DNA of 46,173 nt, taken from contig JBEVNG010000374.1 in the NCBI GenBank assembly GCA_040508235.1, forward strand, positions 1 through 46,173. Direction: 5' to 3'. Positions 9,819 to 36,120 of this stretch are shown one piece after another; position 1 is the first letter of the stretch, and each line of letters begins with the position of its first letter. The notes beneath the pieces are model-generated. The model made no database searches. It was not told where the DNA came from and saw nothing but the letters and a program-made list of their open reading frames with translations. A program made the translations under genes and the position numbers. The DNA comes from Polyangiales bacterium. Its GTDB lineage: Bacteria; Myxococcota_A; Polyangia; Polyangiales; DASUME01.

Positions 9819-9877
9819 GCGAGCTCCTGTTGATCGGATCGTTGCGTGAGCCATGCAGACCACGCTGCTATCCCTCG

Positions 9878-12883: not shown

Positions 12884-12916
12884 ACGCACTGTGTCGCCCG
12901 AAAGGATGGCAAGACG

Positions 12917-17256: not shown

Positions 17257-19221
17257 TCAGTGAGCAGCGCGAGCCTGGGCCAGGGCCCAGAGGGGAAAGA
17301 CCTTGGTGTAGTTGTCGTAGTGGATCGCGCAGCTCTTGTTGAACATGCCGGCGATGCCCTCGGCCGGGTAGCTGCCGTCCGCGCGCTGGCGGTCGATCAG
17401 GAACTGCACGCCGCGCTGCACGGCCGAAGATTGACCTCGGCCCGCCGCGATCAGGCCCAGCACGGCCCAGGCGGTCATCACGGCTTGTCCGCCATCGGAG
17501 TGCACGTAGCGGCGCGAGTAGTTGCTCTCCGGGGTCTCGCCCCAGCCGCCGTCGGCCTGCTGGTGCTGCTCCAGGAACGAGACCGCGCGCTTGATGCGCG
17601 GGTCGCTGCCCGACACGCCCGCGGCGCGTAGTCCCTCGAGCGCAAACCAGGTGCCGTAGGTGAAGCACACGGCCCAGCAGCCCTCCCACGAGCCGTCCTC
17701 GCGCTGACGCGTGAACAGGTACTCACGGCCCCGCGCGATCGCGTCTTCGATCTGCGCGCGCACGGGCTCGTCCGGGAACGCCTCCAGGTACTGCACCAGG
17801 CCCATGATCGACGACGCCGTGCACTCCACGTACGTGTAGTCGATCATGATGTCGCTGAAGATGTTCGCGACGTTGAGCTTCTCCAGCCAGGGACCGGTGC
17901 GCGGCGGCTCGTAGCTGGCCCAGCCGCCGTCCGTGTGCTGGCTCCAGAGCAGGTAGCCGACGGCCGCGCGCAGGTCTTCGTGCTTCATCGGCTGCTTCAC
18001 GCGGCCGCGCATGTCCAGCACCGCGCGCAGGGCCTCCGCCGTGCAGTCGCTGACGATCCAGCCGTTGTGCTTGTTGGAGAAGCCCCAGCCGCCGCGCGTG
18101 GGGTCGCGGTAGCTGCGCTGACGCATGGGCAGGTCGCGCTTGACCTGGTTGTCATCGAGGTAGCGGTTGGCGCGCTCGAGGGCGTCGTCGACCTGTTCCC
18201 CGGTGGCCACCAGCGCCTGCGCCGCGAACGACGTGTCCCACACCTGCGAGGAGTGGTAGCCCTGCACCTTGGTGCCGTCCTCGGCGCGCCACAGGTACTC
18301 CGGGTACTTGGCGACGTGACGCTGGAACTCGGGGCCACCGCGGCGCGCGTGGTGCCAGACCCACATGTTGTAGGGCTTGTTGACCGGGCCGAGGCACACG
18401 TAGTCCGTGTTGCGGTCCTCGTGATCGATCTGCTCCAGCACCTCGCGCATCGCGCGCGGGCGCAGCGGCTTGTACGGCAGCGCCTCGTAGGCGTGCATCG
18501 CCTTGTTGGCGAGCTTGGCCAGGTCGCTGAGCGGCGTGTAGTCGTCGCTCGGCGCCACCTGATCGCGGCCGCTCTTCCAGTCGACCTGCTCGTACGGCAC
18601 GTCGTAGAGCTCCCCGCGGATGGCGAGGACCTTGTCGTCCACCGGCATCTGCACGCGCGCGCCGTAGAGGTACGACATCGGCATGTAGACCATGCGCGAG
18701 TGACACCACATGTGCGACGGATGCACGGGCAGGTCCTTGGGCAGGATCCACAGCTCGGGCGGCACCGGGTTCATGCCGCGGTAGTCGTAGAGGTTGAGCA
18801 GCGCGAGGCAGAACTTGCCCCACGAGGCCGACGTCAGCGGGCCGCCGTTGTCGCGGATGAAGTGGCGCGCCTTCACCAGCGCGGCGTCGTCCGCCGGCAC
18901 GCCATGCAAGCGCATGGCGGCGTAGATGATGGTGCTGGTGAACTGGTAGCTGTGGCTCTCGATGTGCAGGCCCCAGCCGCCGTCGTCGTTCTGCGTATTG
19001 CGCAGGTAGCGCAGCATCTCGTCGCGATCGCGCGCATCGAGCGGGGCGCCGGTGCCGTAGCAAGTGGCGAGGTACAGCGGCACCAGGAACATCGGCCCGC
19101 CGTAGTCCCCGAGCCAGTGTCCCGCCTCTTCCTGCGTCGCCGTCAGGTGCCCGATGGCCCGCGAGATGGCACCCGACAACGCGTCCTTGCGCCCTTTGGA
19201 CGACTCAACGACCGCTTCCAT
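17257..19221 (-). CDS. Oxidosqualene cyclase (sterol-forming triterpene cyclase)
   Basis: Catalytic motif GWIVSDCTAEAL (VSDCTAE is the OSC type, as opposed to DxDDTA of squalene-hopene cyclases). Several QW repeats (QNDDGGWG, QHTDGGWASY, RQREDGSWEG, QQADGGWGE). ATG at 19221 preceded by GGTGGAGAG. The listed ORF begins at GTG 19233. Confidence 0.9.
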   Translation of the reverse strand: MEAVVESSKGRKDALSGAISRAIGHLTATQEEAGHWLGDYGGPMFLVPLYLATCYGTGAPLDARDRDEMLRYLRNTQNDDGGWGLHIESHSYQFTSTIIYAAMRLHGVPADDAALVKARHFIRDNGGPLTSASWGKFCLALLNLYDYRGMNPVPPELWILPKDLPVHPSHMWCHSRMVYMPMSYLYGARVQMPVDDKVLAIRGELYDVPYEQVDWKSGRDQVAPSDDYTPLSDLAKLANKAMHAYEALPYKPLRPRAMREVLEQIDHEDRNTDYVCLGPVNKPYNMWVWHHARRGGPEFQRHVAKYPEYLWRAEDGTKVQGYHSSQVWDTSFAAQALVATGEQVDDALERANRYLDDNQVKRDLPMRQRSYRDPTRGGWGFSNKHNGWIVSDCTAEALRAVLDMRGRVKQPMKHEDLRAAVGYLLWSQHTDGGWASYEPPRTGPWLEKLNVANIFSDIMIDYTYVECTASSIMGLVQYLEAFPDEPVRAQIEDAIARGREYLFTRQREDGSWEGCWAVCFTYGTWFALEGLRAAGVSGSDPRIKRAVSFLEQHQQADGGWGETPESNYSRRYVHSDGGQAVMTAWAVLGLIAAGRGQSSAVQRGVQFLIDRQRADGSYPAEGIAGMFNKSCAIHYDNYTKVFPLWALAQARAAH

Positions 19222-19234
19222 CCCACTCTCCACC

Positions 19235-19258
19235 GTTGACGTTGACGTTGACGTTGAC
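19235..19258. repeat. Perfect tandem hexamer (GTTGAC)x4, read as (GTCAAC)x4 on the coding strand
   Basis: gttgac gttgac gttgac gttgac at 19235-19258, followed by gtg. Lies in the 67-nt spacer between the fusion-gene stop (19289) and the OSC ATG (19221), abutting the OSC SD. Confidence 0.9.
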
Positions 19259-19288
19259 GTGGCCGGCGACGGCGACGATCCCGCGGTA

Positions 19289-22200
19289 CTACGCCCTACG
19301 CTCCGCGACCATCACCGGCTGCCAGAGCGCGTAGTAGCGATCCCGCAGGTACTCGTCGTCTCCCACGTGCATCACGCACTCCGCGATCACCTGCTCCACC
19401 GTCTGGCGCGAGATCTTCACCTCTTCGCCGACCGTGAACATCGCGTCGTTGCCGCGTGCGTGCACCAGCGTGTGTGCCGCCATCCAGAGCGGGAGCAGGC
19501 AGAACAGGCGCACGCCCTTCTCGTCCGTGGGCAGCGACAGCGCGTAGTCGAGCGCGCGGTCGAGCTTGATGCGCGCGAGGTCGAGCAGCGGCGCGACCGC
19601 ATCGTGCGCCTGATCGCGCACGCTCGGGTCGACCAGGTTGTCGATCCGGATGCCCACGCGCTCGCAGGCCGCGCGCGGCACGAACGACCAGCGGCGGGCG
19701 CGGTCGTCGGTGACGTCCTTGAGGATGTTCACCAGCTGCAGGCCCGCACCGAAGGACTCCGCGTGGTGGCGCAGGTCCGCCATCGTCTCGGGGTCCATCT
19801 TGTCGTTCAGCGCGTCGATGAACAGCTCGGTGAGCATGTGCCCGACGGTGCCCGCGACGTAGTAGCAGTAGCGCTCGAGATCTTCGTTGGTGTACAGCGC
19901 GACGAAGCCGTCCGGCCCCGGCTCGCGGTGCGTGTACAGGCTCATGCCGCGCGCCATCTCGGCGGTCCAGCGCGACACGATGACCTGCATGCTCTCGGGC
20001 AGCTTCTGGAACACGCGCATCACGCGCGGGAAGTTGCGCGCCGCGTTGAGCTCCGCGTCGTCGCCCTCGATCTCCTCGAAGGCGCTCGCCATCTTCTGCG
20101 CCTCACCGCGATGCTCCAGCGTGGCCAGGAACATCTCGAACAGGCTGTCCTTCTGCCCGCGCGGCACGGCCGGGTGATCTTCGATGGTGTCCGCGATGCG
20201 GCACAGCAGGTAGCCGCAGGTGACTGCGACCTCGAGATCACCGGGCAGCATCTGGATGGGCTTGGAGAACGTGCGCGAGACCGCGACCAGGCTCTCCTTG
20301 CAGAACGTCCAGTCGTCGCCCTCGACCTTGACGCCCTCGGCGCGCGGCCTCGTGCGCCGCTTCTGCTCCCAGCCCGCCAGCGCGTCGACGACGTCGCAGC
20401 AGCGGTCCCAGCTCTCGTCGCGCGCGGCGCGCACGTCGGCGCTGAGCGTGTCGCTGAGCAGCGTGACCAGGTGCGGCACCGCGCGCTGGATCGCGCCCCA
20501 GTGTGGACCCGGCACCGTCAGCAGCGCCTGCACCGCGCGCGCCGTCAGCTCGGGCGAGCCCGCGCGTTCGTCGCTGCGAGCGTGCCAGGTGCCATCGGCG
20601 TGCTGCTGAGTGCACAAAAAGCGCGCGGCGCGGCGCAGGGCCGGCGACGACGCCTGCATGCCGGTGGCGACCAGCGCGCGCATCGCGTGCACCGTGTTGC
20701 TGAGCGCGCCCTCGGTCTCCGAGGCCGGCCATGCGCCGTCCTTGCGCTGCGTGGCGAGCAAGAAGCGGTTGGCGCGGCGCAGCGCCTCGTCGTAGCGCAG
20801 CGCACCGTCGTCGCCGTAGCGATCGCGGCAGCGTGCGAGCGCGCGGCAAGCGAGCTCCGTGATCTGGTAGTCGGGCACCGCGTTGGGCGTCGGCCAGGCG
20901 GCGAAGCCACCGCCAGCGCGCTGGCACGCCAGCAAGTGGCGCACGCCATCCTCCAGGCGATCGATCGCCTCGCCGTCGTCCGGCGTGAGGATGCTGAGCA
21001 TGAAGGTGGCGAAGTCGCTGGCGCGGATGACGTGCGGCTCGGCCTGGTACGCCGCGACCAAACGCGTGATGCCCACGCGCGCCATCGGGCGCTTGGCCAG
21101 GCGCATGCGCGCCTGCATGCTGGTGCCCAGATCCGCCGCGTCGATGGCCGCCACGATGCGCGTGGCGCTGCGCAACAGCGCCCAGTCCGGGGCGCGGCCG
21201 ATCTGCTCGTGCAGCCGGCGCAGCTCCACCAGCAAGGCATCACCGGCGAGCGAGAGCGCCTCCTGCACGGTGCCCTTCTCGCTCGCGGCCACCGGCGTCT
21301 CGACCACCGGCGCGGGCGACAGCGGCTCCGCCTTGAGCACGCGCATGCCCGGCACGCGCAGCGGCAGCGGGCGATCCGACGTGCTCTTCATGCGGTAGAC
21401 CTTGCGGCCGCGCGAAGGAACGAAGTTGGCGGCCGGCCACTGCATCCACTCGCGGTACGAGGCGAGCGTCTGGCCGAACTCCTTGAGGCGCTTGGTCTGG
21501 CCCAGCTCCTTGACGCTGGAGCCGAACGCGCTGAGCGCGATGCGCGAGAACACCACGCCGAACGAGCTGCGACGCGGCTCCGCGCCCATCAGGATACGCA
21601 TGGTGCGCTCGCGCTCGAAGCGGCTCTGCTTCCACACCTTCCAGGTGGCGCTGCGGATGGCGGCGGCGCTGGGGTCCTCACGCGCGAACACGTGATAGAG
21701 CGCGTTCGAGAGCAGCTCCGGGACGTAGCTCTCCTTCTCGCGCTGCTTCTGGTACTCCTTGAGCGGCACGCCCGAGCCAGCGAGCTCCGCGTCGAGGAAG
21801 CCGAGCGTCATGCCGGCGGCGGTCAGCGGGTGGAAGTGCCCCACCGCGTCGCCCGCGAGCGTGATCGCGTCGCGGCCGTAGGTGGCGCGCGGCGCGAAGC
21901 GATTCACCGCCCAGCCGACCGGACCACGCTCCAGCGCGTCGCGGAAGGAGCCGCGCAGGCGCTCCGGTATCACGGCCGCGTAGCCGTCCCAGAGGAACGC
22001 CGGGTTGCGGCGGTTGGCGTCGAACGAGAGCGGCACGTCGAAGCAGCCGCGGATCAGATCCGGGCCGATGCGGTAGAGCAGCACCGGGCCAGGTCCACCG
22101 AGCACGACGTGTCCGTAGCCCTCGACCGGCAGCTCGACGCCGCGCAGCTCGACCGAGCCCATGTACGAGACGGCCTGGCCGTTGCCGAGACCCAGCGCCT

Positions 22201-22687
22201 TGCGGGCGACCGAGGCGCGGCCGTCGGCGCCGATCACGCGACCCGCGCTGACGGTGGTCTCGCCGCTCTTGGTGCGGAACGTGACCAGGTTGCCTTCGAT
22301 GTTCGTCACGCGCGCGTGCGGGCGGTACTCCACCTCGGGCAGCGCGATGGCGCGCTCGCGAATGCTCTCGACGATGCGCGAGTGCTCGCAAGCGAGTGCG
22401 ACGTGGCCGGCGGGATACGGAAGCTCGATGGGCTCGCTGCCGTCGTCCGGAAAGACCACGAAGCCGTAGCCGGTGCGCGCCTCACCGCCCTCCAGGCGAC
22501 CGATGCGCAGGCGATCGAGCACCGCGACGCCGGTGGGATGCAGCCACTCGCCCGCGAAGCGATTCGCGGCCTCGGGGTTGGCCTCGAGCAGGAGCACACG
22601 TTGCCCGCTGCGTGCCGCGGCCACGGCGGCGACGGATCCGACCGGCCCCGCTCCGACCACCACGACGTCGTAGCTGTTGCGTATCAT
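19289..22687 (-). CDS. Tri-domain fusion: FAD squalene monooxygenase (epoxidase), prenyltransferase/squalene-cyclase-type alpha-toroid repeat domain, and squalene synthase
   Basis: Uninterrupted 1132-aa ORF. ATG at 22687 preceded by GGGAGGCACGAAGGG. aa 1-390: DVVVVGAGPVGS FAD fold and the epoxidase signature GDAVGHFHPLTAAGMTLG. aa about 470-745: repeat motifs QRAGGGFAAWP, QRKDGAWP, QQHADGTWH. aa about 790-1132: squalene/phytoene synthase motifs SRTFSKP, CRIADTIED, YCYYVAGTVGHMLT, GLQLVNILKDVTDD. Confidence 0.85.
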   Translation of the reverse strand: MIRNSYDVVVVGAGPVGSVAAVAAARSGQRVLLLEANPEAANRFAGEWLHPTGVAVLDRLRIGRLEGGEARTGYGFVVFPDDGSEPIELPYPAGHVALACEHSRIVESIRERAIALPEVEYRPHARVTNIEGNLVTFRTKSGETTVSAGRVIGADGRASVARKALGLGNGQAVSYMGSVELRGVELPVEGYGHVVLGGPGPVLLYRIGPDLIRGCFDVPLSFDANRRNPAFLWDGYAAVIPERLRGSFRDALERGPVGWAVNRFAPRATYGRDAITLAGDAVGHFHPLTAAGMTLGFLDAELAGSGVPLKEYQKQREKESYVPELLSNALYHVFAREDPSAAAIRSATWKVWKQSRFERERTMRILMGAEPRRSSFGVVFSRIALSAFGSSVKELGQTKRLKEFGQTLASYREWMQWPAANFVPSRGRKVYRMKSTSDRPLPLRVPGMRVLKAEPLSPAPVVETPVAASEKGTVQEALSLAGDALLVELRRLHEQIGRAPDWALLRSATRIVAAIDAADLGTSMQARMRLAKRPMARVGITRLVAAYQAEPHVIRASDFATFMLSILTPDDGEAIDRLEDGVRHLLACQRAGGGFAAWPTPNAVPDYQITELACRALARCRDRYGDDGALRYDEALRRANRFLLATQRKDGAWPASETEGALSNTVHAMRALVATGMQASSPALRRAARFLCTQQHADGTWHARSDERAGSPELTARAVQALLTVPGPHWGAIQRAVPHLVTLLSDTLSADVRAARDESWDRCCDVVDALAGWEQKRRTRPRAEGVKVEGDDWTFCKESLVAVSRTFSKPIQMLPGDLEVAVTCGYLLCRIADTIEDHPAVPRGQKDSLFEMFLATLEHRGEAQKMASAFEEIEGDDAELNAARNFPRVMRVFQKLPESMQVIVSRWTAEMARGMSLYTHREPGPDGFVALYTNEDLERYCYYVAGTVGHMLTELFIDALNDKMDPETMADLRHHAESFGAGLQLVNILKDVTDDRARRWSFVPRAACERVGIRIDNLVDPSVRDQAHDAVAPLLDLARIKLDRALDYALSLPTDEKGVRLFCLLPLWMAAHTLVHARGNDAMFTVGEEVKISRQTVEQVIAECVMHVGDDEYLRDRYYALWQPVMVAERRA

Positions 22688-22897
22688 CCCTTCGTGCCTC
22701 CCTGCGGCGGTGTAACCAGCACTCGTGATGCGGGCAAGCTTTCCGCGAGGGTCGAACAGCGTGGGAACGTCAATAAAATCCTAGTGAAAGAGCCTTCACT
22801 ATCAGCGAGGGAATCTCACGGGTGGCGCACGTGCACAAACGCATGCGTTACACGCAAAGTGCACTGACACGCGCGCAAACGCTGACCGATCAGGTCG

Positions 22898-24364
22898 CTA
22901 TTCGTCGCAGTTGATCGGCCAGGCCGGCGCAACGGGCATGTACAGCGAGCGACCGTCCGAGGGCTTCCACTCGGTCACGGTCGAGTGCAGCGTGAACGTG
23001 GGCATCTCCTTGAGCACCGCGGCGTCGAGATCGCCACTGGCCACGAGATCCTTGAGCACGGTCATGCTGACCGGCCGCATGCGCATGCGCGCGGTCAGGC
23101 GCGCGGGCTGAATGCGGCCCGGCGTGCGGTAGTTGCAGGTGGCCACGTGGTTCGCGAGCGGCGTGATCGCGAGCGGCAAGAGGCGCGACTCGTTGTCGCG
23201 CAGCTTCGACGCCTCCCAGAACATGTGCGCTTCTTTGCCGCTCTCGTCCTCCCAGACGTTGCGGAACATGCACAGCTGCGAGTCGTGGCGTGGATCCGTG
23301 ACCGGGTACTCTTCCTCGTCCTGGTCGCCGATCACGCCACTCTGCCAGAGCACCTTGTCGGTCTCGTCGTAGGCGATGACCTCCATCCACAGGCGGCGAT
23401 CCTGCGCCACGCCGCTCGGCTGCGCGTGGCCGGCGCGCGTCTCGATGGCGATCTGGAAGCCACCAGCGCCATCGTTGGTCAGCTCGAAGATGTACGCGCC
23501 GTCCTCGCTGAGCGTGCACTCGGTGTCCAGCTTGAACTTCTCGCGATCCGGGAAGTCGTGCAGCGCGACGTCGACCGCGGGCCACAGGTGCTCGTGGCGA
23601 TCGCGTTGTGGCAGGTTCATGCCGGGCACCTTCGCGATCGTGGTCGTCTCCACCCACGGCATGTGGCAGCCCTGGCAGGTGTCCCCGCCCTGGTTGCCGC
23701 GCACCGAGATATTGTGGATGCTCGACTCGTACTCGGCGAACGTGCGCTCGATGTGCGCGCCCTTGTCGTTCTTGACGTCGTGGCAGCTGCCGCAGAGCTC
23801 CGAGGCGGCCATGCGTCGGCCATCGTGCGCCTCGCTGTAGGCCACGCCGTGCACGCCGGGATCGACAGCGTCGCGGATCGAGCCGCGCATCACGTTGTCG
23901 TTCGCGAGCGTGACGTTCGCGTTGAAGTGATCGGGCCCCGAGCCGGTGGCGTTGTGGCAGAAGTAGCAAGTGACGCCCTTCTGCGCCTTGGGCAGCGTGT
24001 CCACGTTCAGGCCGTCCGTGGTGAGCCCGTTACGCACGGCCATCGGCGCGTGGCACTGGATGCAGAAGTCGCCGAGCGCGCCGTTGGTCTCGCGCTGCCC
24101 GCGCTTGTTCATCGCAATGAACACCGGGTCCTCGGCCGCGTAGGCGTGCATGCTGCTGGCCCACTCCGCGTACTGCGACGGGTGGCAGGTCTTGCACGTC
24201 TCGGGATCCTGCAGCTGCTCCAGGCTCAGGCGCTGCGGCGTCGCGATCATCGCCGCGTCGCTGCCGGCGTCCTGCTCGGGCTTGGGCGGCGGCTTGGCGT
24301 CGTCACCACAGCCGAGCGCGCTCGTGGAGAGCAGGCCGGCCACCAACACGAACTGACTCCTCAT
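22898..24364 (-). CDS. Pentahaem c-type cytochrome lipoprotein
   Basis: ATG at 24364. Lipobox MRSQFVLVAGLLSTSALGC. Five CxxCH motifs (CKTCH, CIQCH, CYFCH, CGSCH, CQGCH) in the N-terminal half. About 220-aa C-terminal region without motifs. Confidence 0.85.
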   Translation of the reverse strand: MRSQFVLVAGLLSTSALGCGDDAKPPPKPEQDAGSDAAMIATPQRLSLEQLQDPETCKTCHPSQYAEWASSMHAYAAEDPVFIAMNKRGQRETNGALGDFCIQCHAPMAVRNGLTTDGLNVDTLPKAQKGVTCYFCHNATGSGPDHFNANVTLANDNVMRGSIRDAVDPGVHGVAYSEAHDGRRMAASELCGSCHDVKNDKGAHIERTFAEYESSIHNISVRGNQGGDTCQGCHMPWVETTTIAKVPGMNLPQRDRHEHLWPAVDVALHDFPDREKFKLDTECTLSEDGAYIFELTNDGAGGFQIAIETRAGHAQPSGVAQDRRLWMEVIAYDETDKVLWQSGVIGDQDEEEYPVTDPRHDSQLCMFRNVWEDESGKEAHMFWEASKLRDNESRLLPLAITPLANHVATCNYRTPGRIQPARLTARMRMRPVSMTVLKDLVASGDLDAAVLKEMPTFTLHSTVTEWKPSDGRSLYMPVAPAWPINCDE

Positions 24365-24371
24365 CGCGCGC

Positions 24372-24932
24372 TCACTCCACGCAGATCTGCACGGTGGCCT
24401 TGCCGACCGTGGCGCCGTTTTGCTGGAGGTCGAACAGCACCTGCCAGGGGCCGCGCATGATGAAGTCGATACGCTCCAGCTTGTACGTGCCGGGCTCCGT
24501 GCCGGGCGACACCACCGGGGGCGTCTTGCCGCCATGGCGATGCACCGGCATGTACGACGCCGGGTTCAGGAACGTGAGCCCCGAGACGGGCTGCCCCGCG
24601 GCGTCGCTTACCTGCACGGTCCAGTCGTTGCGCGTCTTCTGGCGCGGCGGCGCGGGCGTGATCGCCTGCACCTTCACCGTGAGCTCGCCCGCCTTCACGG
24701 ACATGCCGGGCGTGAACGACGGATAAGCGGCGTCGCAGGGCACCTCTTCTTCGAGGTACGGGTCGCCGCCGTCGGCCGTCGCCGCGTCGTGATCGTGCTC
24801 GTGACCACTCGCATCGTGGTCGTGCTCGTGATCATCGCCTTCCCCTGCGGGCGCGTCGTCGCCACAGGCGTACGCGAAGCCGAGCGCGGCGACACAGGTC
24901 GAGAGCAAGAGCCGTTTGGCAAAGCTAGTCAT
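24372..24932 (-). CDS. YtkA/FixH-like Ig-fold lipoprotein with a His/Asp-rich linker
   Basis: ATG at 24932 preceded by GAGGATG. Lipobox ALGFAYAC. Low-complexity EGDDHEHDHDASGHEHDHD. C-terminal beta-rich domain (GTYKLERIDFIMRGPWQVLF). The family call is from memory only. Confidence 0.6.
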   Translation of the reverse strand: MTSFAKRLLLSTCVAALGFAYACGDDAPAGEGDDHEHDHDASGHEHDHDAATADGGDPYLEEEVPCDAAYPSFTPGMSVKAGELTVKVQAITPAPPRQKTRNDWTVQVSDAAGQPVSGLTFLNPASYMPVHRHGGKTPPVVSPGTEPGTYKLERIDFIMRGPWQVLFDLQQNGATVGKATVQICVE

Positions 24933-24939
24933 GACATCC

Positions 24940-26538
24940 TCACTTCTTGCGACGACGCAGGTTGCGGCCCAGCACCATCAGCAACATTCCCAAGCTCGTC
25001 CATGCTCCGTCGGCGCGCTTGTCGCCGATCGCGCAACCATCATCACTCTTGCTCGACGGTTCGTCCGTGACCTTGCCCGCATCGTTTCGTCCCGCATCGC
25101 GCGCGCCCGCATCGAGCGTGCCCGCATCGCGAGGAACGTTGCCCGCATCCAGCAGCGGCACGCCGCCCTCGGGCTGGCCCATGCCCTGCTGGTCGCAGGT
25201 ACGCCCGACCATCTGGTCGTAGGCGAGGCCGGACTTGCCGCAGAACACGCGCTGCGAGCCGCGCATGGTCACGTCGTAGTTGTCGCAGAACGCCGTGCAC
25301 GGGTAGTGCCCCGTGCAGCACCAGGCCGGCCCCTGATTGAGCTGGTCCTGGCAGATCGCGCCGACGTCTGCGTTCGGGCATTCCAAGAGCTTGGGCACCT
25401 CGCTGATGCGCACCACGTTGCCGTCGGCGACCGTCTCGCTCGCCGGGTCGAAGGTCCGGACCCTATCACCCTGGCAGACGTAGAAGTTGTTGTTCGCCTG
25501 CGACCAAGTGACGCAGTCCAGGCCCTGCGTGCCGGCGATGTGCGTCAGCGGCTGGCCGAGCGCGGGGGCGGTCCAAAGACCACCGGGATCCATCGCGTCG
25601 CCCTGATCGCTGAGGTAGACCGCGCCGTCCGGAGCGAACGCCGCACCGGTCAAGTAGCGCAGCTGACCATACTCCTTGAACGTCGCGCCCTCGTCCTCGC
25701 TGAGCAGCAGCACGTCGGCCGCGAGGTCGTCGATGAGCGCGCCGAGCAGGCGCTTGGGGTTGCCCGGGTCGACGGCCACCAGCGTGAACCTGTCGGCCTG
25801 CTCCGCGGCCAAGGCCGGGCCCATGCTCCAGGTCTTGCCGCCGTCGTCCGACTTCACGATGTGCATCAGCTGCTGCGGATCCATGCCCTGCGACACCCGT
25901 ACGGACGCGTAGATACGCGTTCCGGTGTCGGTGAGCGTGACCTTCAGCTCGCCGCCGTACGCCTGCTGTCCCGCCTTGTGCGCGACCAGCTCGCCGGCCT
26001 CCGCGACCGACGTCCAGGCGCCGCTCGCGCCGCGACGCATCAACAGCGCTCGCGACTCGTAGGTGCCGCCGACGTTGCTCGACACGTTCAGGACCGCCAG
26101 CAGCTCGCCCGACTTGGGATCGAGCGCGAGCGACGTGGGCCAGCCCTCGGTGAGCGACTTGGACCAGCTGCAGCCGGTGCCGTCGTCCGACCACATGCCG
26201 CCGAGCTGCGTGGCGTGCAGCTGCCCTGCGCTGTCGAGCAGCGTGGCCGCGTTGGTGTTCACTTCGGCCTGCGTCAGCTTGGTGACCGTGTCGCTGCCTG
26301 CGTCCACGATGCCGCCGAGCGACGTGATGCCGGCGCTACAGAGCGCGGCGAACGTCTTGCCACCGTCGCGGCTGAACAAGAAGCCCTCGCTCGCGGTGCT
26401 CCAGCGCACGACGACGATGTTCTTGTCCGTCGGGTGAAGCAGCACCTGCGACAGCCGCTCGACCGGTCCCGATGCGTGAGCCACCTCGCCGAGCCCACTG
26501 CTCAGGGCCAACATCGCGAAGAAAAGCCTGAATCTCAT
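24940..26538 (-). CDS. Asp-box (BNR) beta-propeller protein with a Cys-rich module and a MYXO-CTERM-type sorting tail
   Basis: ATG at 26538. Signal MRFRLFFAMLALSSGLGEVAHA. Asp-boxes SRDGGKTF, SDDGGKTW, SEDEGATF. Ten Cys in about 115 aa. C-terminus DDGCAIGDKRADGAWTSLGMLLMVLGRNLRRRKK (GC motif, TM helix, basic tail). Confidence 0.8.
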   Translation of the reverse strand: MRFRLFFAMLALSSGLGEVAHASGPVERLSQVLLHPTDKNIVVVRWSTASEGFLFSRDGGKTFAALCSAGITSLGGIVDAGSDTVTKLTQAEVNTNAATLLDSAGQLHATQLGGMWSDDGTGCSWSKSLTEGWPTSLALDPKSGELLAVLNVSSNVGGTYESRALLMRRGASGAWTSVAEAGELVAHKAGQQAYGGELKVTLTDTGTRIYASVRVSQGMDPQQLMHIVKSDDGGKTWSMGPALAAEQADRFTLVAVDPGNPKRLLGALIDDLAADVLLLSEDEGATFKEYGQLRYLTGAAFAPDGAVYLSDQGDAMDPGGLWTAPALGQPLTHIAGTQGLDCVTWSQANNNFYVCQGDRVRTFDPASETVADGNVVRISEVPKLLECPNADVGAICQDQLNQGPAWCCTGHYPCTAFCDNYDVTMRGSQRVFCGKSGLAYDQMVGRTCDQQGMGQPEGGVPLLDAGNVPRDAGTLDAGARDAGRNDAGKVTDEPSSKSDDGCAIGDKRADGAWTSLGMLLMVLGRNLRRRKK

Positions 26539-26677
26539 GCGTGCTCCCAAGGCCATCATTGCTACCGCAAGACCATGGGATGACGCAGGGCTTTCCGCAC
26601 GCAATGCGGAGATTTTTGTGTGCTGCGGGCTCTTTACCCCACAACGCCATGGTCGCTTTCGCGCCTGACGGTTTCGG

Positions 26678-27379
26678 TCAGGGCGTGCTCGCGCCCGTCA
26701 TTCCGTCGACGCCTGCATCGGACTCGGTGCGCTCGACGATCGTTCCATCGGGCGGCGCGACCGGCGCCCAGCGCAGCTGCAGGTAGCCCGAGGAGCCCGC
26801 CGAGTTGTAGTAGCCCTCGACCGCGACCTTGAAGAACGCGCCTTCCTGCGAGCGCACGACATAGACGTTCGCCTTGGGCGAGAGCGCGTGCGTCGATGGA
26901 TCGTACGCGTACCAGACATAATCGCCGGTCGCGATCACATAGTCGGGCTCGTTGTCCGAGTCGCTCCCGTCGGGACCATCCGACGCGTAGCCGGTGTATG
27001 GCGCCTTGGTCACGGCTGCGAACGTGCTGTCCGTCACGACCGATACCCTCACCGTGCCGGCGCCGCTCAATCCGCCGTTGGTCGCCAGCTTGAAGCGCTG
27101 CGCCTTGAGATCCCACTGCGTCCAGTTGGTCGCGTCGGTGCGCGTCTCGCCGGTCTCTAGGTCGACGTACACCCACACCATGCTGTTGGTGGTGTCGAGC
27201 TCGCGCTTCTGCTCGATAGGCGCGGGTGGCGGCACGTAGCCATCTCCGCTGGCGCTCGCGTCGAGCGGCGCGGTCGGCACGCCGCCGTCGAGGTTGGGCT
27301 CGGGCTCCGGCTCTCCCTCGGGCTTGAGGTCGTCACAGCCGACGAGGGCGAGCGCCAGGATCAAAGCGGTGCGTCTCAT
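26678..27379 (-). CDS. HmuY-like lipoprotein
   Basis: ATG at 27379 preceded by GGAGA. Lipobox LALALVGC. Resembles the HmuY family (WDLKAQRFKLATNGGLSGAG...; VYVVRSQEGAFFKVAVEGYY). Only one His in the whole protein. Confidence 0.6.
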   Translation of the reverse strand: MRRTALILALALVGCDDLKPEGEPEPEPNLDGGVPTAPLDASASGDGYVPPPAPIEQKRELDTTNSMVWVYVDLETGETRTDATNWTQWDLKAQRFKLATNGGLSGAGTVRVSVVTDSTFAAVTKAPYTGYASDGPDGSDSDNEPDYVIATGDYVWYAYDPSTHALSPKANVYVVRSQEGAFFKVAVEGYYNSAGSSGYLQLRWAPVAPPDGTIVERTESDAGVDGMTGASTP

Positions 27380-27391
27380 GTCGTCTCCAGA

Positions 27392-29299
27392 TCAGATGCT
27401 GAGGTTGAGGCCCGCGTAGAACGTGGCGGGGCGCAGTGGGTTGTTGGCGTCGCCGGAGTCGGTGGCGTTCTCCACCACGAGGTACGGCTCGACGTAGCGA
27501 CTGATCACGAACGAGGCGCGCAAGTCGAGCACCGCGTAGGGCGAGCTGAGGTCGCGGTCGTCCATCATGATGTGGCGCTTGCCCATGAACAGGCAGCGCG
27601 CGGAGAACGAATAGCGCTCGCGCGTGTACACCGAGCGCAGCGAGCCGCGATGGCGTGCGCGCCCCTGCAGCGGCGTGTCCTCCACCAGGTCCCGCGTGTC
27701 CGTGAACGTGTAGTTCACCTCGAACAGCAGGCCCTCCAGCGGACGCGTCTGCACGGAGCTCTCCACGCCCTGCGTGCGGGCGCGCGCGTAGTTGGAGTAG
27801 GAGAAGACCTGCTCGCCGCCCTCGATGCCGGCCAGGCGCGTGTCGATCAGGTCGCGCAGCTCGTTGCGGAACAGGTTGAGCGTGCCGCCGACCCACTTGT
27901 AGCCGTGCACCTCGGCGCTCAGGTTCGCGCCCAGCGAGTGCTCGGGCTTGAGGTCCGTGTTGCCGGTGACGCGGTAGCCCGCCGCGGGGTTGGCGAAGAT
28001 CAGGTACAGCTCGCTGAAGCTCGGCGCGCGAAAGCCGCGGCCCACCGCGCTGCGCAGCACCAGCCAGCTCCATGGGTCGTAGCGCAGCGCGATGCGCGGC
28101 GAGACGTTCACGCCGTACTGCGAGTCGACGTCGAGGCGCGCGCTCGGCACGATCGCCAGCTGCGCGATCGGACGATACTCGACCTGCGCGTACGGAGAGA
28201 TGCGCCCGCGCGTGCCGATCTCCGACAAGCGCGGCGTGTCGTAGCGCTGGCCCAGCGCCTCGATGCCGCTGGTCAGGTGCAGCGGGCCGAGCTCGTTGTC
28301 GCTCTGCAGGCGCACGGTGGCCAGCTGCTCGTTGGCGTCCTCGTAGGTGTCGCCGTCGTCGTCGCGGCGTTGATCGCGCAGGAACTGGCTGCGCAGGTAG
28401 GCGTAGTTGAGGGCGAGCGTGAGCTGGTCGGCCTGGCGCAGCTTCCAGCTGGGCACGGTGGTGAGCATGAGCTCGTCTCCGCGCGCGACGCGGTCGTAGA
28501 TCGCGCCACCGGGGCCGTCGTCGACCCCCTTCTGCTCGCGACGCACCGCGCGCACGAACATGGGCAGCGAGAAGCGCTCGTGAGGGGTGTAGCTGGTGCG
28601 CAGGTTGGCGCTCACGCTGTCGAGCCGGTTGCCCGTGGTGGAGGCGGTGTCGGGCGAGAGATCGAAGGCCGCGTTGCGTCGGTAGGCGACGTTGCCGCGC
28701 GCGCGGAACTTCTGGTTGCCGCCGAACGCGCTGACCCAGGCGTCGCCCTGGTGCCCGCCGTCGCGCGAGATGCCGTAGCGTCCCTGTGCTTCGCCGCCGG
28801 GCTTCTGGCGCGGAGCGCGCGTGATGATGTTGACCACGCCCGCGATCGCGTCGGAGCCGTAGATCGCGGAGGCCGGACCGCGCACGATCTCGATGCGCTC
28901 GATGTCGCCCGCGAACAGGCGCGTGAGGTCGAGCGCCCCGTCGCGCGCACCGATCAAGCGCTCGCCGTCGACCAGGATCAGCGTGTGCTGGGCGTCCAGG
29001 CCCTGCATCTGGATCGCGTCGCCGCGGAACGAGCTGTCGATCTGGATGCCCGGCTGGTTGGCCAGGATCTGCGCGGCGTCGCGCATGCCGCTGGCGACGA
29101 TCTGCGCGCGGTCGATCACCTCCACCGCGACCGTGCTCGCGCCGAGCCGCTCCGGGCTGCGCCGGCCGGTGACCACGATGTCGATCGGCTCCTCCTGAGG
29201 AGGCGCCTCCTCGGCGCGGGCGCGGAGCGGTGCCGCGAGCACGCAGGCGAGCGCCAGCACGCTGCGAAGTGGCGTTCGACTTTCGACAACGGGGGGCAT
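27392..29299 (-). CDS. TonB-dependent outer-membrane receptor
   Basis: Signal peptide, TonB-box-like PIDIVVTG, plug motifs IEIVRGPASAIYGSDAIAGVVNIITR. C-terminal beta-barrel ends ...FYAGLNLSI, with the terminal aromatic two residues in. Overlapping frame 27333..29411 rejected. Confidence 0.9.
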   Translation of the reverse strand: MPPVVESRTPLRSVLALACVLAAPLRARAEEAPPQEEPIDIVVTGRRSPERLGASTVAVEVIDRAQIVASGMRDAAQILANQPGIQIDSSFRGDAIQMQGLDAQHTLILVDGERLIGARDGALDLTRLFAGDIERIEIVRGPASAIYGSDAIAGVVNIITRAPRQKPGGEAQGRYGISRDGGHQGDAWVSAFGGNQKFRARGNVAYRRNAAFDLSPDTASTTGNRLDSVSANLRTSYTPHERFSLPMFVRAVRREQKGVDDGPGGAIYDRVARGDELMLTTVPSWKLRQADQLTLALNYAYLRSQFLRDQRRDDDGDTYEDANEQLATVRLQSDNELGPLHLTSGIEALGQRYDTPRLSEIGTRGRISPYAQVEYRPIAQLAIVPSARLDVDSQYGVNVSPRIALRYDPWSWLVLRSAVGRGFRAPSFSELYLIFANPAAGYRVTGNTDLKPEHSLGANLSAEVHGYKWVGGTLNLFRNELRDLIDTRLAGIEGGEQVFSYSNYARARTQGVESSVQTRPLEGLLFEVNYTFTDTRDLVEDTPLQGRARHRGSLRSVYTRERYSFSARCLFMGKRHIMMDDRDLSSPYAVLDLRASFVISRYVEPYLVVENATDSGDANNPLRPATFYAGLNLSI

Positions 29300-29354
29300 G
29301 CGCGCGCGAAAACCGTCTGCAATCGAAGACCAACCGCGCGCGTCCTACGCGCTG

Positions 29355-29370
29355 TTGACTTTCATTTTCA
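29355..29370. promoter_or_regulatory. AT-rich box in the divergent TBDR/ABC promoter region: Fur-box-like on the minus strand, TTGACT -35-like on the plus strand
   Basis: Plus strand ttgactttcattttca. Minus strand TGAAAATGAAAGTCAA, containing GAAAAT GAAAGT versus the Fur hexamers GATAAT GATAAT. Lies 56-71 nt upstream of the receptor ATG. Confidence 0.25.
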
Positions 29371-29485: not shown

Positions 29486-30205
29486 GTGATAGGCCTCATG
29501 GGCATGTCGAACGCCATCGCTTGGGCCCTCGAAGCGCGCGACGTCCGCAAGTCGTACGGCGAACGCCCCGTGCTGCGCGGCGTCTCGCTGCGCATGGCGC
29601 CGGGCGAAGGAATGGCGCTGCTCGGACCCAACGGCTCGGGCAAGACCACGCTGCTGTGCGTGCTCGCGGGCGTGCTGCGGGCGGATCAGGGCAGCGCGCT
29701 GTGCGGCGGCGAGTGCACCTCCAAGAAGCGCGCGCGGCGCGGCGTGGGCTTCGTGCCGCAGACAGCCGCGGTCTACGACGACCTGACCGGCGCCGAGAAC
29801 ATCGCGCTGTTCGCGCGCCTGCACGGCCTGCGTGGAGCGGTGCTGCAGGAGCGCGTGGAGGCGAGCCTACGAGAGACCGAGCTCGCCCACGTGCGTGATG
29901 CCCGCGCGCGCACGTACTCGGGCGGCATGCGGCGACGCCTGAGCCTGGCCTGCTCGCTGGTGCACGAGCCGGCGGTGCTGCTGCTCGACGAGCCGTTCGA
30001 GGGTGTCGACGAGGACTCGCGCGCGCACCTGCTGGACGTGTTGTCCGAGTCCAAGCGACGCGGCGTGGCGCTGCTCCTGAGCACCCATCGCCTGGAGGAA
30101 GTGGCCGCCCTGTGCGAGCAGTTCACGTTGCTGCGCGACGGGGCCGTGGTCGCGACGCGCGCGGTGCAGGACGGCCCGGAAGCGCGGGAATCTCCGCTGC
30201 CATGA
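29486..30205 (+). CDS. ABC transporter ATP-binding protein (ABC-2/DrrA-like)
   Basis: Walker A GPNGSGKTTL, signature YSGGMRRRL, Walker B VLLLDEP. GTG at 29486, 16 nt after GGGAGG. Alternative ATGs at 29498 and 29504. Confidence 0.85.
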   Translation: MIGLMGMSNAIAWALEARDVRKSYGERPVLRGVSLRMAPGEGMALLGPNGSGKTTLLCVLAGVLRADQGSALCGGECTSKKRARRGVGFVPQTAAVYDDLTGAENIALFARLHGLRGAVLQERVEASLRETELAHVRDARARTYSGGMRRRLSLACSLVHEPAVLLLDEPFEGVDEDSRAHLLDVLSESKRRGVALLLSTHRLEEVAALCEQFTLLRDGAVVATRAVQDGPEARESPLP

Positions 30206-31311
30206 GCGCCCTGGTCACGATCGCGGCCAAGGATCTGCGGCTGGTGCTGCGCGACCGCGCGGGCCTGTTCTGGATCGCGGCGTTCCCGATCCTGTTCGCG
30301 CTGTTCCTCGGCGCGGTGCTGGAGCGCTGGTCGTCGCGCGACGATCTCGCGTTGAGCGTCGCGCTGACCGATCTCGATCGCTCGCCCGAGGCGCGCGTCT
30401 ATGTGGAGCGCCTGATCAAGGCGGGCACGCTGGCCGTGCGCGAGCAGCCGCTGGAAGAAGCGCGCGCGACGCTGCTGCACGGCGACGTCGACGCGGTGGT
30501 GGTGCTGCAGCCGGGCTTTGGCGCGGTGCCGGACTGGTACGCGGGCACCGCCGAGGTGATGCACGTGGAGGCCGACCCGAGTCGTCGTCGCGAGGCGGGC
30601 TACGTGAAGGGCCTGCTGCTGGAGGCCGGCCTGTCGCGCGCGATCGAGGACGAGCTGATGAGCGACCCGCGCAGCGCGGTGAAGGTGGTGCAGGCCGCGT
30701 CGCTGCACGCGACCCCGAGCGCCGCCGAGCTAGTGACGCCGGCCGCCGTGCTCTGGGGGCTGATCGGCTGCGCGGCCGCGTTCGCGATCTCGCTCGCCAG
30801 CGAGAAGCGCGCCGGCACGCTGCGGCGTCTACGCAGCCTGCCGATCGCGGACTGGCAGATCCTGAGCGGCAAGGCGCTGGCGTGCTTCGCGGCCTGCCTG
30901 TCGATCGCGGTCACCATCCTGGCTGGCGCGCTGCTCGGCTTCGGCGTGCGGCTCGAGAGCGCGCTCGGCCTCGGAGTGGTGGTGGTCGCGCTGACCTTCT
31001 GCTTCACGGGCATCATGGCCGCCATCAGCACGCTCGGCTCCAGCGAGCAGGCGGTCGCCGGCGCGGGCTGGGGCACGCTGCTGGTGCTCGGCATGGTCGG
31101 CGGCATCATGGTGCCGCGCATGATCATGCCCACCTGGTTGGTCTCGCTGGGCGTGCTCAGCCCCGTACGCTGGGGCTTGATCGGGCTCGAGCACTCGCTC
31201 TGGCGCGGCGGCAGCCCGATCGACTGGCTGGTGCCGTGCGCCTGGCTGATGGTGATGGGCGCGGCGGGCATGGTCGGAGGTGCGCTGGTGTTGCGACGGA
31301 GCGCGGCGTGA
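30202..31311 (+). CDS. ABC-2 type transporter permease
   Basis: ATG at 30202 forms an ATGA overlap with the ATPase stop. N-terminal TM helix, large loop, then five C-terminal TM helices, which is ABC-2 topology. Confidence 0.8.
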   Translation: MSALVTIAAKDLRLVLRDRAGLFWIAAFPILFALFLGAVLERWSSRDDLALSVALTDLDRSPEARVYVERLIKAGTLAVREQPLEEARATLLHGDVDAVVVLQPGFGAVPDWYAGTAEVMHVEADPSRRREAGYVKGLLLEAGLSRAIEDELMSDPRSAVKVVQAASLHATPSAAELVTPAAVLWGLIGCAAAFAISLASEKRAGTLRRLRSLPIADWQILSGKALACFAACLSIAVTILAGALLGFGVRLESALGLGVVVVALTFCFTGIMAAISTLGSSEQAVAGAGWGTLLVLGMVGGIMVPRMIMPTWLVSLGVLSPVRWGLIGLEHSLWRGGSPIDWLVPCAWLMVMGAAGMVGGALVLRRSAA

Positions 31312-32483
31312 AGCGCCTCTTGTTCGTGGTCGAGGACATCACGCTGGCGCAGGTGGTGCGGCTGGTGAAGCTCGCCAGCGCCCTGACCCGCGATCAGTAC
31401 GAGGTGCACTTCGCGAGCTCACGCTTCGACCCGCTGATCTTCGCGGGCACCTCGTTCACGCAGCACACCCTCTACACGTTCGAGGGTGCGCTCAAGCGCC
31501 TGGAGCGTGGGCAGCGGCTGTACTCGCGGCGCGTGCTCGCGCGCTACGTCGAGGAAGAGCTGGCGCTGTTCAAGCAGGTGAAGCCGGACGTGGTGATCGG
31601 CGACCTGCGCTTCAGCCTGACCGTCAGCGCGCCACACGCGGGCATCCCGTACGCGGCGCTGATCAACGCCTACTGGAGCCGCGCGATGCAGCGCGAGGTG
31701 TTCCCGCTGCCGGAGCACCCCATCGTGCGCCTGCTGGGCGAGCGGCTGGCGGCCCAGTACTTCCCGCAGGCGATGCCGCGCGTGCTGCAGTGGTTCGCCG
31801 CGCCGGTGAACGCGCTCCGCAAGCAGTACGGGCTGCCGCCGTTCGGCGACCTGATCGACGTCATGATGCACGGCGATCGCGTGCTGTTCCCCGACGTGCC
31901 GGCGATCACGCCGCTGTCGACGCTGCAGCCCAACGAGCAGTTCCTCGGGCCGGTGTTGTGGGAGCCGGCGCTGCCGCCGCCCGAGTGGTGGTCGCGCTCG
32001 CTCGGTGCGCGCGCGGTCTACGTGACCATGGGCTCGTCGGGACGCAACGACCGCCTGCCCACCGTGCTCAAGGCGCTGACGCGGCTCGACTTGCCGCTGA
32101 TGGTCAGCAGCGCCGGGCGCGAGCTGGACGTCGGCAGCAACGTGCTCGCCGCCAAGTACCTGCCCGGCAGCGCGGCCGCCCGGCGCTCGGCCTTCGTGGT
32201 CTGCAACGGCGGAAGCTCGACCGGCTACCAGGCGCTTCGCGAGGGCAAGCCCGTGCTGGGCATCGCCTCCAACCTCGACCAGTACCTGGCGATGACCGCC
32301 GTCCGCGACGCCGGTGCCGGCATCCTCTTGCGCTCTGACTCCCTGCACGAGCTCGCGGTCGTCGACGCGGCCCAGGCGCTGCTGGAGGACCCGCGCTACG
32401 CCCTCGCCGCCCAGCGCATCGCCGCCGAGCTGGCCAGCCACGACTGCCACGCGCGCTTCGAGTCCGCGATCTCTTCGCTGTAA
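31308..32483 (+). CDS. GT1-family (MGT/UGT-like) glycosyltransferase
   Basis: GTG at 31308 forms a GTGA overlap with the permease stop. YVTMGSSG and VVCNGGSSTGYQALREGKPVLGIASNLDQ are the C-terminal nucleotide-sugar-binding motifs of GT-B GT1 enzymes. Confidence 0.8.
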   Translation: MKRLLFVVEDITLAQVVRLVKLASALTRDQYEVHFASSRFDPLIFAGTSFTQHTLYTFEGALKRLERGQRLYSRRVLARYVEEELALFKQVKPDVVIGDLRFSLTVSAPHAGIPYAALINAYWSRAMQREVFPLPEHPIVRLLGERLAAQYFPQAMPRVLQWFAAPVNALRKQYGLPPFGDLIDVMMHGDRVLFPDVPAITPLSTLQPNEQFLGPVLWEPALPPPEWWSRSLGARAVYVTMGSSGRNDRLPTVLKALTRLDLPLMVSSAGRELDVGSNVLAAKYLPGSAAARRSAFVVCNGGSSTGYQALREGKPVLGIASNLDQYLAMTAVRDAGAGILLRSDSLHELAVVDAAQALLEDPRYALAAQRIAAELASHDCHARFESAISSL

Positions 32484-32526: not shown

Positions 32527-32553
32527 GGTGCTTCAGGATATCAGTGACTGTAG

Positions 32554-32637
32554 TGCGAAAGAGAGGACTCGAACCTCCACGAGTGTTACCCCACTGGAAC
32601 CTGAATCCAGCGCGTCTGCCAATTCCGCCACTTTCGC
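32554..32637 (-). tRNA. tRNA-Leu (anticodon CAG), class II with a long variable arm
   Basis: Reverse complement GCGAAAG-TG-GCGGAATTGGCAGACGC-G-CTGGA-TTCAGGT-TCCAG-TGGGGTAACACTCGTG-GGAGG-TTCGAGT-CCTCT-CTTTCGC-A. The 7-bp acceptor stem, the T-loop TTCGAGT and the anticodon-loop CAG were folded by hand. CCA is not encoded. Confidence 0.9.
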
Positions 32638-32833
32638 GAAAACCCTTGTGGAAGGGCGAGTGGGATATCTGCTCCAGGGCCCTCTGTCAAGGGACGATCT
32701 GCTCGCAACTCTTTGCGTAGGGTCCGCAGCGTGTGCAGGCCGGGGTCGGTCGGGGCCCTGAGCGGCTCGCGTGCTTCCGCGGAGTTGCTGCCCCGAGACG
32801 CGGGGTATGTGGCTTGCAGAGGGCGCCTCCGGG

Positions 32834-33526
32834 ATGGAACGCGCGCCTTGGCAACGGAGAGTGCGAGTACGTGCTCGCGCCGGCTACACGCTGGTCGAGC
32901 TGATGATGATCGTGGCGATCATCGGCATCAGCACGATGGTGTTCACGCCGGGCTTCAGCCGCGCCATGGCCGACCGCAAGGTGAGCTTGGCGGCGCGTGA
33001 GCTGATCCGAGTCGGGCGGCGCGCACGCGCGGATACGTTTGGCTACCTGCGCTCGCACTTGCTCTGGATCAACCCGAGCGCGCGTACGGTGCAGCTGCTT
33101 CGCGGGCCGACCAACAGCTGCACGCTGGTCAACTGGAGCGAGGTCGTCGGCGACTGCGGCACCGGCCTCGCCAACAACCAGCACCGCTGCGTCGAGAACC
33201 TGTGGATGTCCGACCTCTCGGGCACGCGCACGATCAGCATCTTCGAGGAGACGATCAGCGGCGGCTCGACCACCTACTCCACCACGGGTCGCGCGCTGTG
33301 CTTTCAGCCGAGCGGAGTGATGATGTACGGATCCGGGGCGAACCTGGCCACCGCGAGCGCGCCCACGACGCTGCAGCGCGACAACATCAGCGGCAACGGC
33401 GGCGTCAACGGCGGCTTCATTTTCAGCCTGCTCGACGGCGCCAACGCACCGACCAGCAGCGACACCTCCAAGCGCGTGCACCGCGTGTTGTTCCCGATGG
33501 GCGGCTCGCCGAGGTCGATGCGATGA
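32834..33526 (+). CDS. fimT: Type IV minor pilin, GspH/FimT-like
   Basis: Prepilin motif ...RARAG/YTLVELMMIVAIIGI with Glu at +5. SRAMADRKVSLAARELI is GspH/FimT-like. ATG at 32834. Confidence 0.7.
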   Translation: MERAPWQRRVRVRARAGYTLVELMMIVAIIGISTMVFTPGFSRAMADRKVSLAARELIRVGRRARADTFGYLRSHLLWINPSARTVQLLRGPTNSCTLVNWSEVVGDCGTGLANNQHRCVENLWMSDLSGTRTISIFEETISGGSTTYSTTGRALCFQPSGVMMYGSGANLATASAPTTLQRDNISGNGGVNGGFIFSLLDGANAPTSSDTSKRVHRVLFPMGGSPRSMR

Positions 33527-36112: not shown

Positions 36113-36120
36113 GAGCCCTC

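Follow-up and report, generated by a model that had tools for sequence, protein, structure and literature searches.

Two envelope modules, probably independent, at a Polyangiales locus: a TonB-receptor cassette beside a propeller, a YtkA-like lipoprotein and a pentahaem cytochrome

Five exported products at one locus

The locus considered here lies on contig JBEVNG010000374.1 (assembly GCA_040508235.1) of an uncultured Polyangiales bacterium, a stretch of 46,173 nucleotides with a GC content of about 69% that is referred to below, at its full length, as the window. Between positions 22898 and 29299 its minus strand carries five consecutive genes, here called A to E in the order of transcription, which an original prediction made from the letters alone had described as one envelope operon. 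Gene A (27392-29299) encodes a TonB-dependent receptor of 635 residues, with a signal peptide followed by a TonB-box-like IDIVVTG, and gene B (26678-27379) a 233-residue HmuY-family lipoprotein. Gene C (24940-26538) encodes a secreted BNR/Sortilin-type beta-propeller of 532 residues with a Cys-rich WCCxGHYP domain and a MYXO-CTERM-type tail; gene D (24372-24932), a 186-residue YtkA/CtaK-like lipoprotein with an N-terminal His/Asp-rich tract; and gene E (22898-24364), a 488-residue lipoprotein with a five-haem cap and an Ig-like stem, of the PHC / low-potential c552 type.

At the level of single genes the original prediction was accurate. All five are minus-strand open reading frames with third-position GC of 0.86-0.94, and the spacings of 12, 139, 7 and 7 nt (A-B, B-C, C-D and D-E) were reproduced. 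GGAG or GAGG stands 6-9 nt before the starts of B, C, D and E; these Shine-Dalgarno sequences had been described as embedded in the ends of the preceding genes, which is correct for D and E, where they overlap, but not for B, where the sequence lies inside the 12-nt spacer. The family names were also right, with every Pfam assignment above its gathering cut-off (Plug and TonB barrel, HmuY, BNR, YtkA and Cytochrome_C554 for A to E, respectively); classification by profile gave these same families, and the fold of E was obtained with AlphaFold2 and Foldseek. All five products read as exported, A and C by signal peptides and B, D and E by lipoboxes (LVG-C, AYA-C and ALG-C, respectively).

Two modules side by side

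The window was compared at the protein level with the 80 best cytochrome loci from species genomes, using flanks of up to about 10 kb that are shorter at contig ends. Seven loci, whose cytochromes are 61-86% identical, are orthologous: the window itself and those labelled L082, L081, L001, L002, L088 and L090. Genes A and B were found in 2 of the 7, namely the window and its closest relative, L082, which has 89% DNA identity to the window and the same arrangement, A-B included. They were not found in L081, L001, L002, L088 or L090, which are otherwise collinear: in these five, pseudopilins, GT1, ABC-2 and ABC genes lie on one strand, and C-D-E, a squalene fusion gene, an oxidosqualene cyclase gene and a kinase gene on the other. 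Moreover, no relative of A or B stands within about 10 kb of the cytochrome in any of the 80 loci. At these same loci the cytochrome gene has D as a neighbour in about 50 cases and C in about 13, and sterol genes are present only in the two closest. Looking from the other side, seven A-B loci were fetched from outside the clade, in six distinct and unrelated contexts, and none has C, D or E. The original prediction treated the five genes as a single operon and a single system, an idea to be given up if they proved not to be co-conserved. Since A-B and C-D-E are not co-conserved, the one-system reading fails on its own terms.

The extra segment that bears A-B runs from window position 26694/26733 to 29481/29524. 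Remnants of A or B, which would help to tell insertion from deletion, were sought in the loci without A-B, and none convincing was found there; as the outgroup, L002, is without A-B, insertion is favoured over deletion.

The 139-nt gap between B and C points the same way. It contains a leader of C (26539-26640, minus strand) in which roughly 70 nt before the C start show long identical runs in 4 of 4 loci of one alignment (A2) and are still conserved in the seven of a second (A4). Each of the six orthologous loci has a single copy of ATGGTNTTNNGNTAGC, whereas the 86 other loci have none. Also in the leader are the 9-mer GCGGAAAGC (26590-26598) and a sigma-54-like GG-N10-GC element, TGGTCTTGCGGTAGCA (26560-26575), whose spacing is invariant in seven loci and which matches about half of the bases of the -24/-12 consensus TGGCAC-N5-TTGCA; as evidence for a sigma-54-type promoter this candidate is inconclusive. 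That the gap is a conserved leader of C speaks against A-B and C-D-E making up one unit, and, to judge from these upstream regions, there are likely three transcription units: A-B, C-D-E and the sterol genes that follow. Taken together, the region probably comprises two independent envelope modules that stand side by side, and not one five-gene system.

The A-B cassette

Gene A is a TonB-dependent receptor by both of its domains, the PF07715 Plug (80.6 bits, 1.4e-22) and the PF00593 barrel (135.7 bits, 5.4e-39), and its nearest solved relatives are CirA and BtuB. Two more specific identities were considered and rejected. As a BtuB cobalamin receptor it falls far short (TIGR01779, 197 bits against a cut-off of 600), and no Rfam match, to a cobalamin riboswitch or any other, lies upstream of A even at E<=1. 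As a haem-type receptor (HemR/HmuR/ShuA) it fails as well (TIGR01785, 160 bits against a cut-off of 317): A has the FRAP box of haem receptors, but the stretch from FRAP to NTDL, FRAPSFSELYLIFANPAAGYRVTGNTDL, which stands at their NPNL-box position, is without His.

Gene B is a HmuY-family protein (PF14064, 60.7 bits against a cut-off of 27, 2.3e-16), and its best match in the PDB is 8B6A, HmuY-Bf2 of Bacteroides fragilis (2.3e-7). The single His noted earlier is indeed the only one in mature B, which also has two Met. From this it had been argued that the bis-His haem ligation of P. gingivalis HmuY is impossible; taken as an argument that haem cannot bind, this is too strong. HmuY homologues vary in their use of His-Met or Met-Met haem ligation, or of none, and the protein of 8B6A, which prefers protoporphyrin, binds both protoporphyrin and haem without ligating iron; hence one His does not exclude a tetrapyrrole ligand for B.

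Relatives of B are rare, and in L082, L083-L086, L091 and L092 B is always directly downstream of an A-type receptor. Counting the window, the two genes are neighbours in all 8 loci that show both. Identity to A is 89, 65, 63, 63, 38 and 36% in L082, L085, L083, L092, L091 and L086, and the corresponding figures for B are 74, 56, 56, 55, 42 and 39%. A and B thus co-vary as a pair, diverging in step across loci. The contexts differ: L083/L084 and L085 add a second HmuY gene and PepSY_TM, with the receptor fused to an S8 peptidase and with XusB also present in L084, while L086 and L091 provide further contexts for the cassette. In the fused receptors (1254-1260 residues; L083 4195-7959 and L085 4179-7961) the subtilisin-type S8 peptidase forms the N-terminus. 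In L092 (1483-5487) the peptidase is a separate gene just upstream of the receptor, and both carry the same operator.

That operator, GAAAATGAAAGTCAACAGC (29351-29369, minus strand), lies about 50 nt upstream of the A start and, of all sites in the window, comes closest to the 19-bp Fur consensus (13/19). Its core, GAAAATG[A/C]AAGTCAA, recurs just upstream of TonB-dependent receptor or S8-peptidase genes in L082, L083, L085 and L092. From this conservation of a Fur-box-like operator before the closer cassettes, iron regulation of A-B is inferred. A-B is a self-contained TonB-dependent uptake cassette, made of a small receptor and a HmuY-family lipoprotein; it would be switched on by iron limitation, and in it B would capture a tetrapyrrole-type or other iron-bearing ligand and pass it to the barrel of A.

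The obvious comparison is with the HmuY-HmuR haemophore-receptor pairs of the Bacteroidota, where a gene for a HmuY-fold lipoprotein likewise stands beside a gene for a TonB-dependent receptor. Like those pairs, A-B appears to be iron-regulated, as predicted from the operator, and B may resemble HmuY-Bf2 in having no pair of iron-ligating residues. Unlike them, the cassette has the receptor gene first, belongs to the phylum Myxococcota, and has no other hmu genes that could be found in the window.

The propeller, the YtkA-like lipoprotein and the cytochrome

Gene C is assigned to the BNR/Asp-box propellers, whose hallmark is repeated S-x-D-x-G-x-T-W boxes, and passes the BNR threshold narrowly (PF02012, 28 bits against a cut-off of 27); of six homologues all match BNR and five match Sortilin-Vps10, and the WCCxGHYP motif is invariant among homologues. 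Its C terminus consists of a Cys, a hydrophobic helix and an RRRKK tail. A hydrophobic helix with a basic tail ends 14 of the 16 listed open reading frames homologous to C, 12 of these with a Cys just upstream. The combination of Cys motif, hydrophobic helix and basic tail is that of MYXO-CTERM proteins (PMC11980579); TIGR03901, the MYXO-CTERM model, gives C 13.8 bits, under its cut-off of 20. A single-sequence AlphaFold2 model of C was unusable (pLDDT 37). C is a putative cell-surface BNR propeller, which the tail would anchor.

Gene D is assigned to YtkA (PF13115, 37.7 bits against a cut-off of 25.9, 3.3e-9), and the family of D numbers about 1259 clusters at E<=0.001. Across 30 diverse homologues the invariant residues are C23, C66, W104, M128, H131, H133, M159, G161, W163 and C184. 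C23 is the lipobox Cys, and there is in addition an invariant Cys pair. The signature is Met-x2-His-x-His plus a further Met, giving a His2Met2 set of M128, H131, H133 and M159. The founding YtkA protein, CtaK of Bacillus subtilis, is a lipoprotein with conserved His and Met and a His-rich tail that is needed for assembly of CuA when copper is scarce, and the copper importer YcnJ ends in a YtkA domain (PMC9145763, PMC13344008). D likewise combines a lipoprotein signal, a YtkA domain, conserved His and Met and a His-rich tract. The likeness, which is one of sequence, has its limits: the tract is C-terminal in CtaK (PMC9145763, PMC13344008) but N-terminal in D, where it is not conserved within the family, and the partner of D is a pentahaem cytochrome instead of Sco or cytochrome oxidase genes. 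Searched as a profile against the PDB, D gave a single marginal match, to 9LL2, a "copper resistance protein" (E 0.097).

Some gene calls in the protein library join D to a neighbour. Among P0141, P0173, P0204 and P0220, some contain a C-type propeller, sorting tail included, together with a D-type YtkA protein (712-747 residues), and one joins a monohaem cytochrome c to D. We do not take these as real fusions of C with D or of cytochrome c with D, since the signal peptide of D is retained and they may be merged gene calls; they are used as evidence of adjacency only.

Gene E scores 38.9 bits with Cytochrome_C554, and its five CXXCH motifs are all invariant in 22 homologues. A profile search of E returned 5ZE8, the low-potential pentahaem c552 of Thermochromatium tepidum, at 6.8e-18, and MccSep at 2e-8. 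The AlphaFold2 model of E (pLDDT 82) has one significant Foldseek match in the PDB, again 5ZE8 (9.7e-16, with a TM-score of 0.67, normalised to the target). On the strength of that model E has the fold of the T. tepidum cytochrome, with the five CXXCH in a helical cap and an Ig-like domain at the C terminus. The architecture is that of the PHC family (5ZE8, Geobacter ExtKL/MccSep and the sPHC of cable bacteria), namely an alpha-helical cap followed by an Ig-like beta-sandwich, and the GH-x2-P-x-G loop of that family is also conserved. E differs from the family in being a lipoprotein and in being some 40-100 residues longer, and from the Ext systems in its partners, a YtkA protein and a BNR propeller in place of an Ext porin cluster. 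It is not the polysulfide reductase MccSep (ExtKL), because the Cys haem ligand and the Sec/Cys of that enzyme are both replaced: C239 aligns with an invariant T208 and Sec325 with Val or Ala. The dedicated model agrees (NF040886, 46.7 bits against a cut-off of 250).

Relatives of E number in the thousands overall. About 443 are in species-level genomes, nearly all from Myxococcota and often several to a genome; among the 80 listed loci, five come from one metagenome-assembled genome, and two others contribute three apiece. Across the Myxococcota the D-E core is met again in many paralogous copies. In the paralogous loci D and E are accompanied by a propeller, a monohaem cytochrome or a second YtkA protein, and LVIVD-type propellers and two-component or sigma-54 regulators are also added. 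At one such locus, L089, a 277-residue outer-membrane-barrel-like protein (2674-3507) is encoded between the paralogue of the cytochrome and that of the propeller; it matches Phenol_MetA_deg weakly and contains a His/Met-rich loop, MHMAGEHGGHAGH.

Each component of C-D-E is, then, a member of a known family. The original prediction recognised no described system in its five genes, and in the literature searched we too found no description of the combination of propeller, YtkA protein and pentahaem cytochrome.

A possible role in copper redox chemistry

The case for copper begins with D: it is drawn from the Pfam YtkA assignment, the invariant M128, H131, H133 and M159, and the likeness to CtaK and YcnJ. 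The marginal match to 9LL2 and the His/Met-rich barrel-like protein in the paralogous module of L089 were also counted in its favour. We tentatively propose for C-D-E a periplasmic role in the redox chemistry and chaperoning of copper, a reading that we consider possible, though some way from probable. D would bind copper, as proposed for CtaK of B. subtilis; E would move electrons to or from copper on D, between Cu(II) and Cu(I), with the copper being captured, held or passed on in the periplasm; and C would be the surface-exposed partner of D-E. Stated more narrowly, D and E could be a periplasmic cupric reductase (or oxidase) and chaperone pair, expanded by paralogy in the Myxococcota and coupled in some copies to a surface propeller, but in so specific a form the proposal is rather unlikely to be right. 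The original prediction had suggested redox-assisted capture or release of a metal by all five genes. That suggestion stays viable, as an inference, for D-E, and not for D-E with the receptor pair, as the two are not co-conserved.

There is precedent for the logic of such a pair. In MbnH/MbnP with MbnT, in CorA/CorB, and in MopE with its dihaem peroxidase, the gene for a c-type haem protein that works outside the cytoplasm adjoins one for a protein that binds copper, and in some cases a TonB receptor is encoded close by. These systems use dihaem peroxidases of the MauG type and copper proteins that contain kynurenine; the protein families are unrelated to D and E, and the comparison is offered as an analogy only.

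Several observations weigh against the picture drawn so far. For the division into two modules, the B-C gap has no terminator, and read-through from B into C is possible in this genome. For the regulation, the Fur box matches at only 13 of its 19 positions, and the GG-N10-GC match is the whole of the sigma-54 argument. For copper the objections are more numerous. The metal specificity of D is not readable from its sequence, and its His-rich tract is present in only 5 of 50 homologues. No copper enzyme, pump or regulator is found in the window or conserved beside D-E. Finally, several paralogues of E per genome fit a set of diversified redox enzymes better than a single housekeeping chaperone route.

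This last point leads to the main rival of the copper reading, in which C-D-E would carry out redox catalysis or electron transfer in the envelope, on a small non-metal substrate (such as a sulfur, nitrogen or peroxide species) or towards an extracellular acceptor, with E as the catalyst or wire and D as an accessory Ig-like subunit. E belongs, after all, to a family of pentahaem proteins with Ig-like domains that includes MccSep (ExtKL) and the low-potential c552 of T. tepidum; monohaem cytochromes c adjoin D-E in several paralogous loci, and there is the barrel-like protein of L089; and many paralogues per genome suggest diversification of substrates. Set against this are the replacement of the catalytic residues of MccSep in E, the lack of a conserved porin partner, and the invariant His2Met2 of D, which points to a bound metal. 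We regard the non-metal alternative as unlikely on the present evidence, while recognising it as the one with which the copper reading chiefly has to contend.

Should the copper reading prove correct, it would matter beyond this locus. The control of copper redox state and the delivery of copper in the periplasm of Gram-negative bacteria are only partly understood, and if a chaperone of the CtaK type had a cytochrome-driven partner, the copper pathway would gain a further step. The D-E pair is widespread, to go by the copies of the cytochrome counted above, and none is known to have been studied.

The adjacent sterol genes

On the same strand, 210 nt after E, the gene order continues with a squalene fusion gene, an oxidosqualene cyclase gene and a Ser/Thr kinase gene, all missed by the original prediction. 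Gene F (19289-22687, minus strand) encodes a squalene epoxidase-squalene synthase fusion of 1132 residues (Pfam SE and SQS_PSY), with the epoxidase N-terminal, a short squalene-hopene-cyclase-like repeat region at about residues 570-705 and the synthase C-terminal. The fusion has 88-97% identity to those of L082, L081 and L001, and L088 and L090 have fusions that are similar in length and domain content. Gene G (17257-19233, minus strand) encodes the cyclase (Pfam SQHop_cyclase_N and SQHop_cyclase_C); a tandem hexamer, (GTCAAC)x4, at 19236-19259 lies directly upstream of its GTG start. The sterol region is collinear in L082, L081, L001, L002, L088 and L090.

The intergenic region between E and F (22688-22897, minus strand) contains a leader of about 140 nt that is conserved in an alignment of six loci (A5). 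A perfect palindrome in it, AGTGAA-N6-TTCACT (22783-22800), occurs nowhere else in the window and probably serves as an operator. The leader also holds a second copy of GCGGAAAGC (22738-22746). This 9-mer has only two sites in the 46-kb window, one 51 nt before the start of C and the other 50 nt before the start of F; beyond it the two leaders have no significant similarity. RNA structure in the E-F spacer is not supported (z-score -0.8).

The shared 9-mer, at nearly the same distance from the two start codons, together with the position of C-D-E directly upstream of the fusion and cyclase genes in all seven orthologous loci, might be taken to mean that C-D-E is functionally tied to the sterol genes, for example by being co-regulated with them and acting on a sterol-containing outer membrane. 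We consider this very improbable. Collinearity in those genomes extends over the entire neighbourhood, some 20 kb, so that adjacency may reflect relatedness only and by itself is no proof of a functional link; paralogous D-E and C-D-E modules exist without sterol genes nearby; the C and F leaders are otherwise dissimilar; and C, D and E resemble no known lipid-binding domain. A metagenome scan for distant sterol linkage, made with the epoxidase-synthase fusion, gave no confirmed match, the patterns used being too specific.

Least probable of all is that the five genes A to E are one system, in which the receptor and its HmuY-like partner would bring in a metal or metallocofactor, with the cytochrome and the His-rich YtkA-like protein helping to capture or release it: the common strand, the short spacings, the lack of an intrinsic terminator between B and C, the same arrangement in L082 at 89% DNA identity and the precedent of copper systems in which haem and copper-binding proteins go together with a TonB receptor, such as the methanobactin receptor MbnT with MbnH/MbnP, are outweighed by the absence of A-B from five orthologous loci and all 80 cytochrome loci, by the seven fetched A-B loci outside the clade (six distinct contexts) without C, D or E, and by the separate operator of A and conserved leader of C. 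In work on this locus, or on the neighbouring sterol genes, the TonB receptor pair should accordingly not be treated as part of the same system.

The wider window

Divergent from the cluster, at 29486-32483 on the plus strand, are genes for an ABC ATPase, an ABC-2 permease and a GT1 (EryCIII-like) glycosyltransferase that are collinear in all orthologous loci; they could export a glycosylated lipid. These are followed by a tRNA-Leu(CAG) gene (32553-32637, minus strand) and by a set of pseudopilin and PilY1-like genes (32771-39594, plus strand), both again collinear in the orthologous loci.

On the other side of the cluster, a gene at 12863-13576 (plus strand) has a LuxI-type autoinducer synthase domain (PF00765, 1.9e-15); a LuxI-type synthase is unusual in a myxobacterium. 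About 7 kb from the sterol genes, the region 5725-10615 (minus strand) encodes a serine-acetyltransferase-like protein, a PLP enzyme, a sulfotransferase, an alpha/beta hydrolase and a TauE/SafE exporter, and resembles a cluster for sulfation or for a sulfur metabolite. Close to the first position of the window are genes for two more haem proteins that act outside the cytoplasm, a RoxA-like cytochrome c (73-1245, plus strand) and a DHOR-type dihaem oxidoreductase (3338-5698, minus strand); L081, L088 and L090 likewise have a RoxA-like gene beside the cluster.

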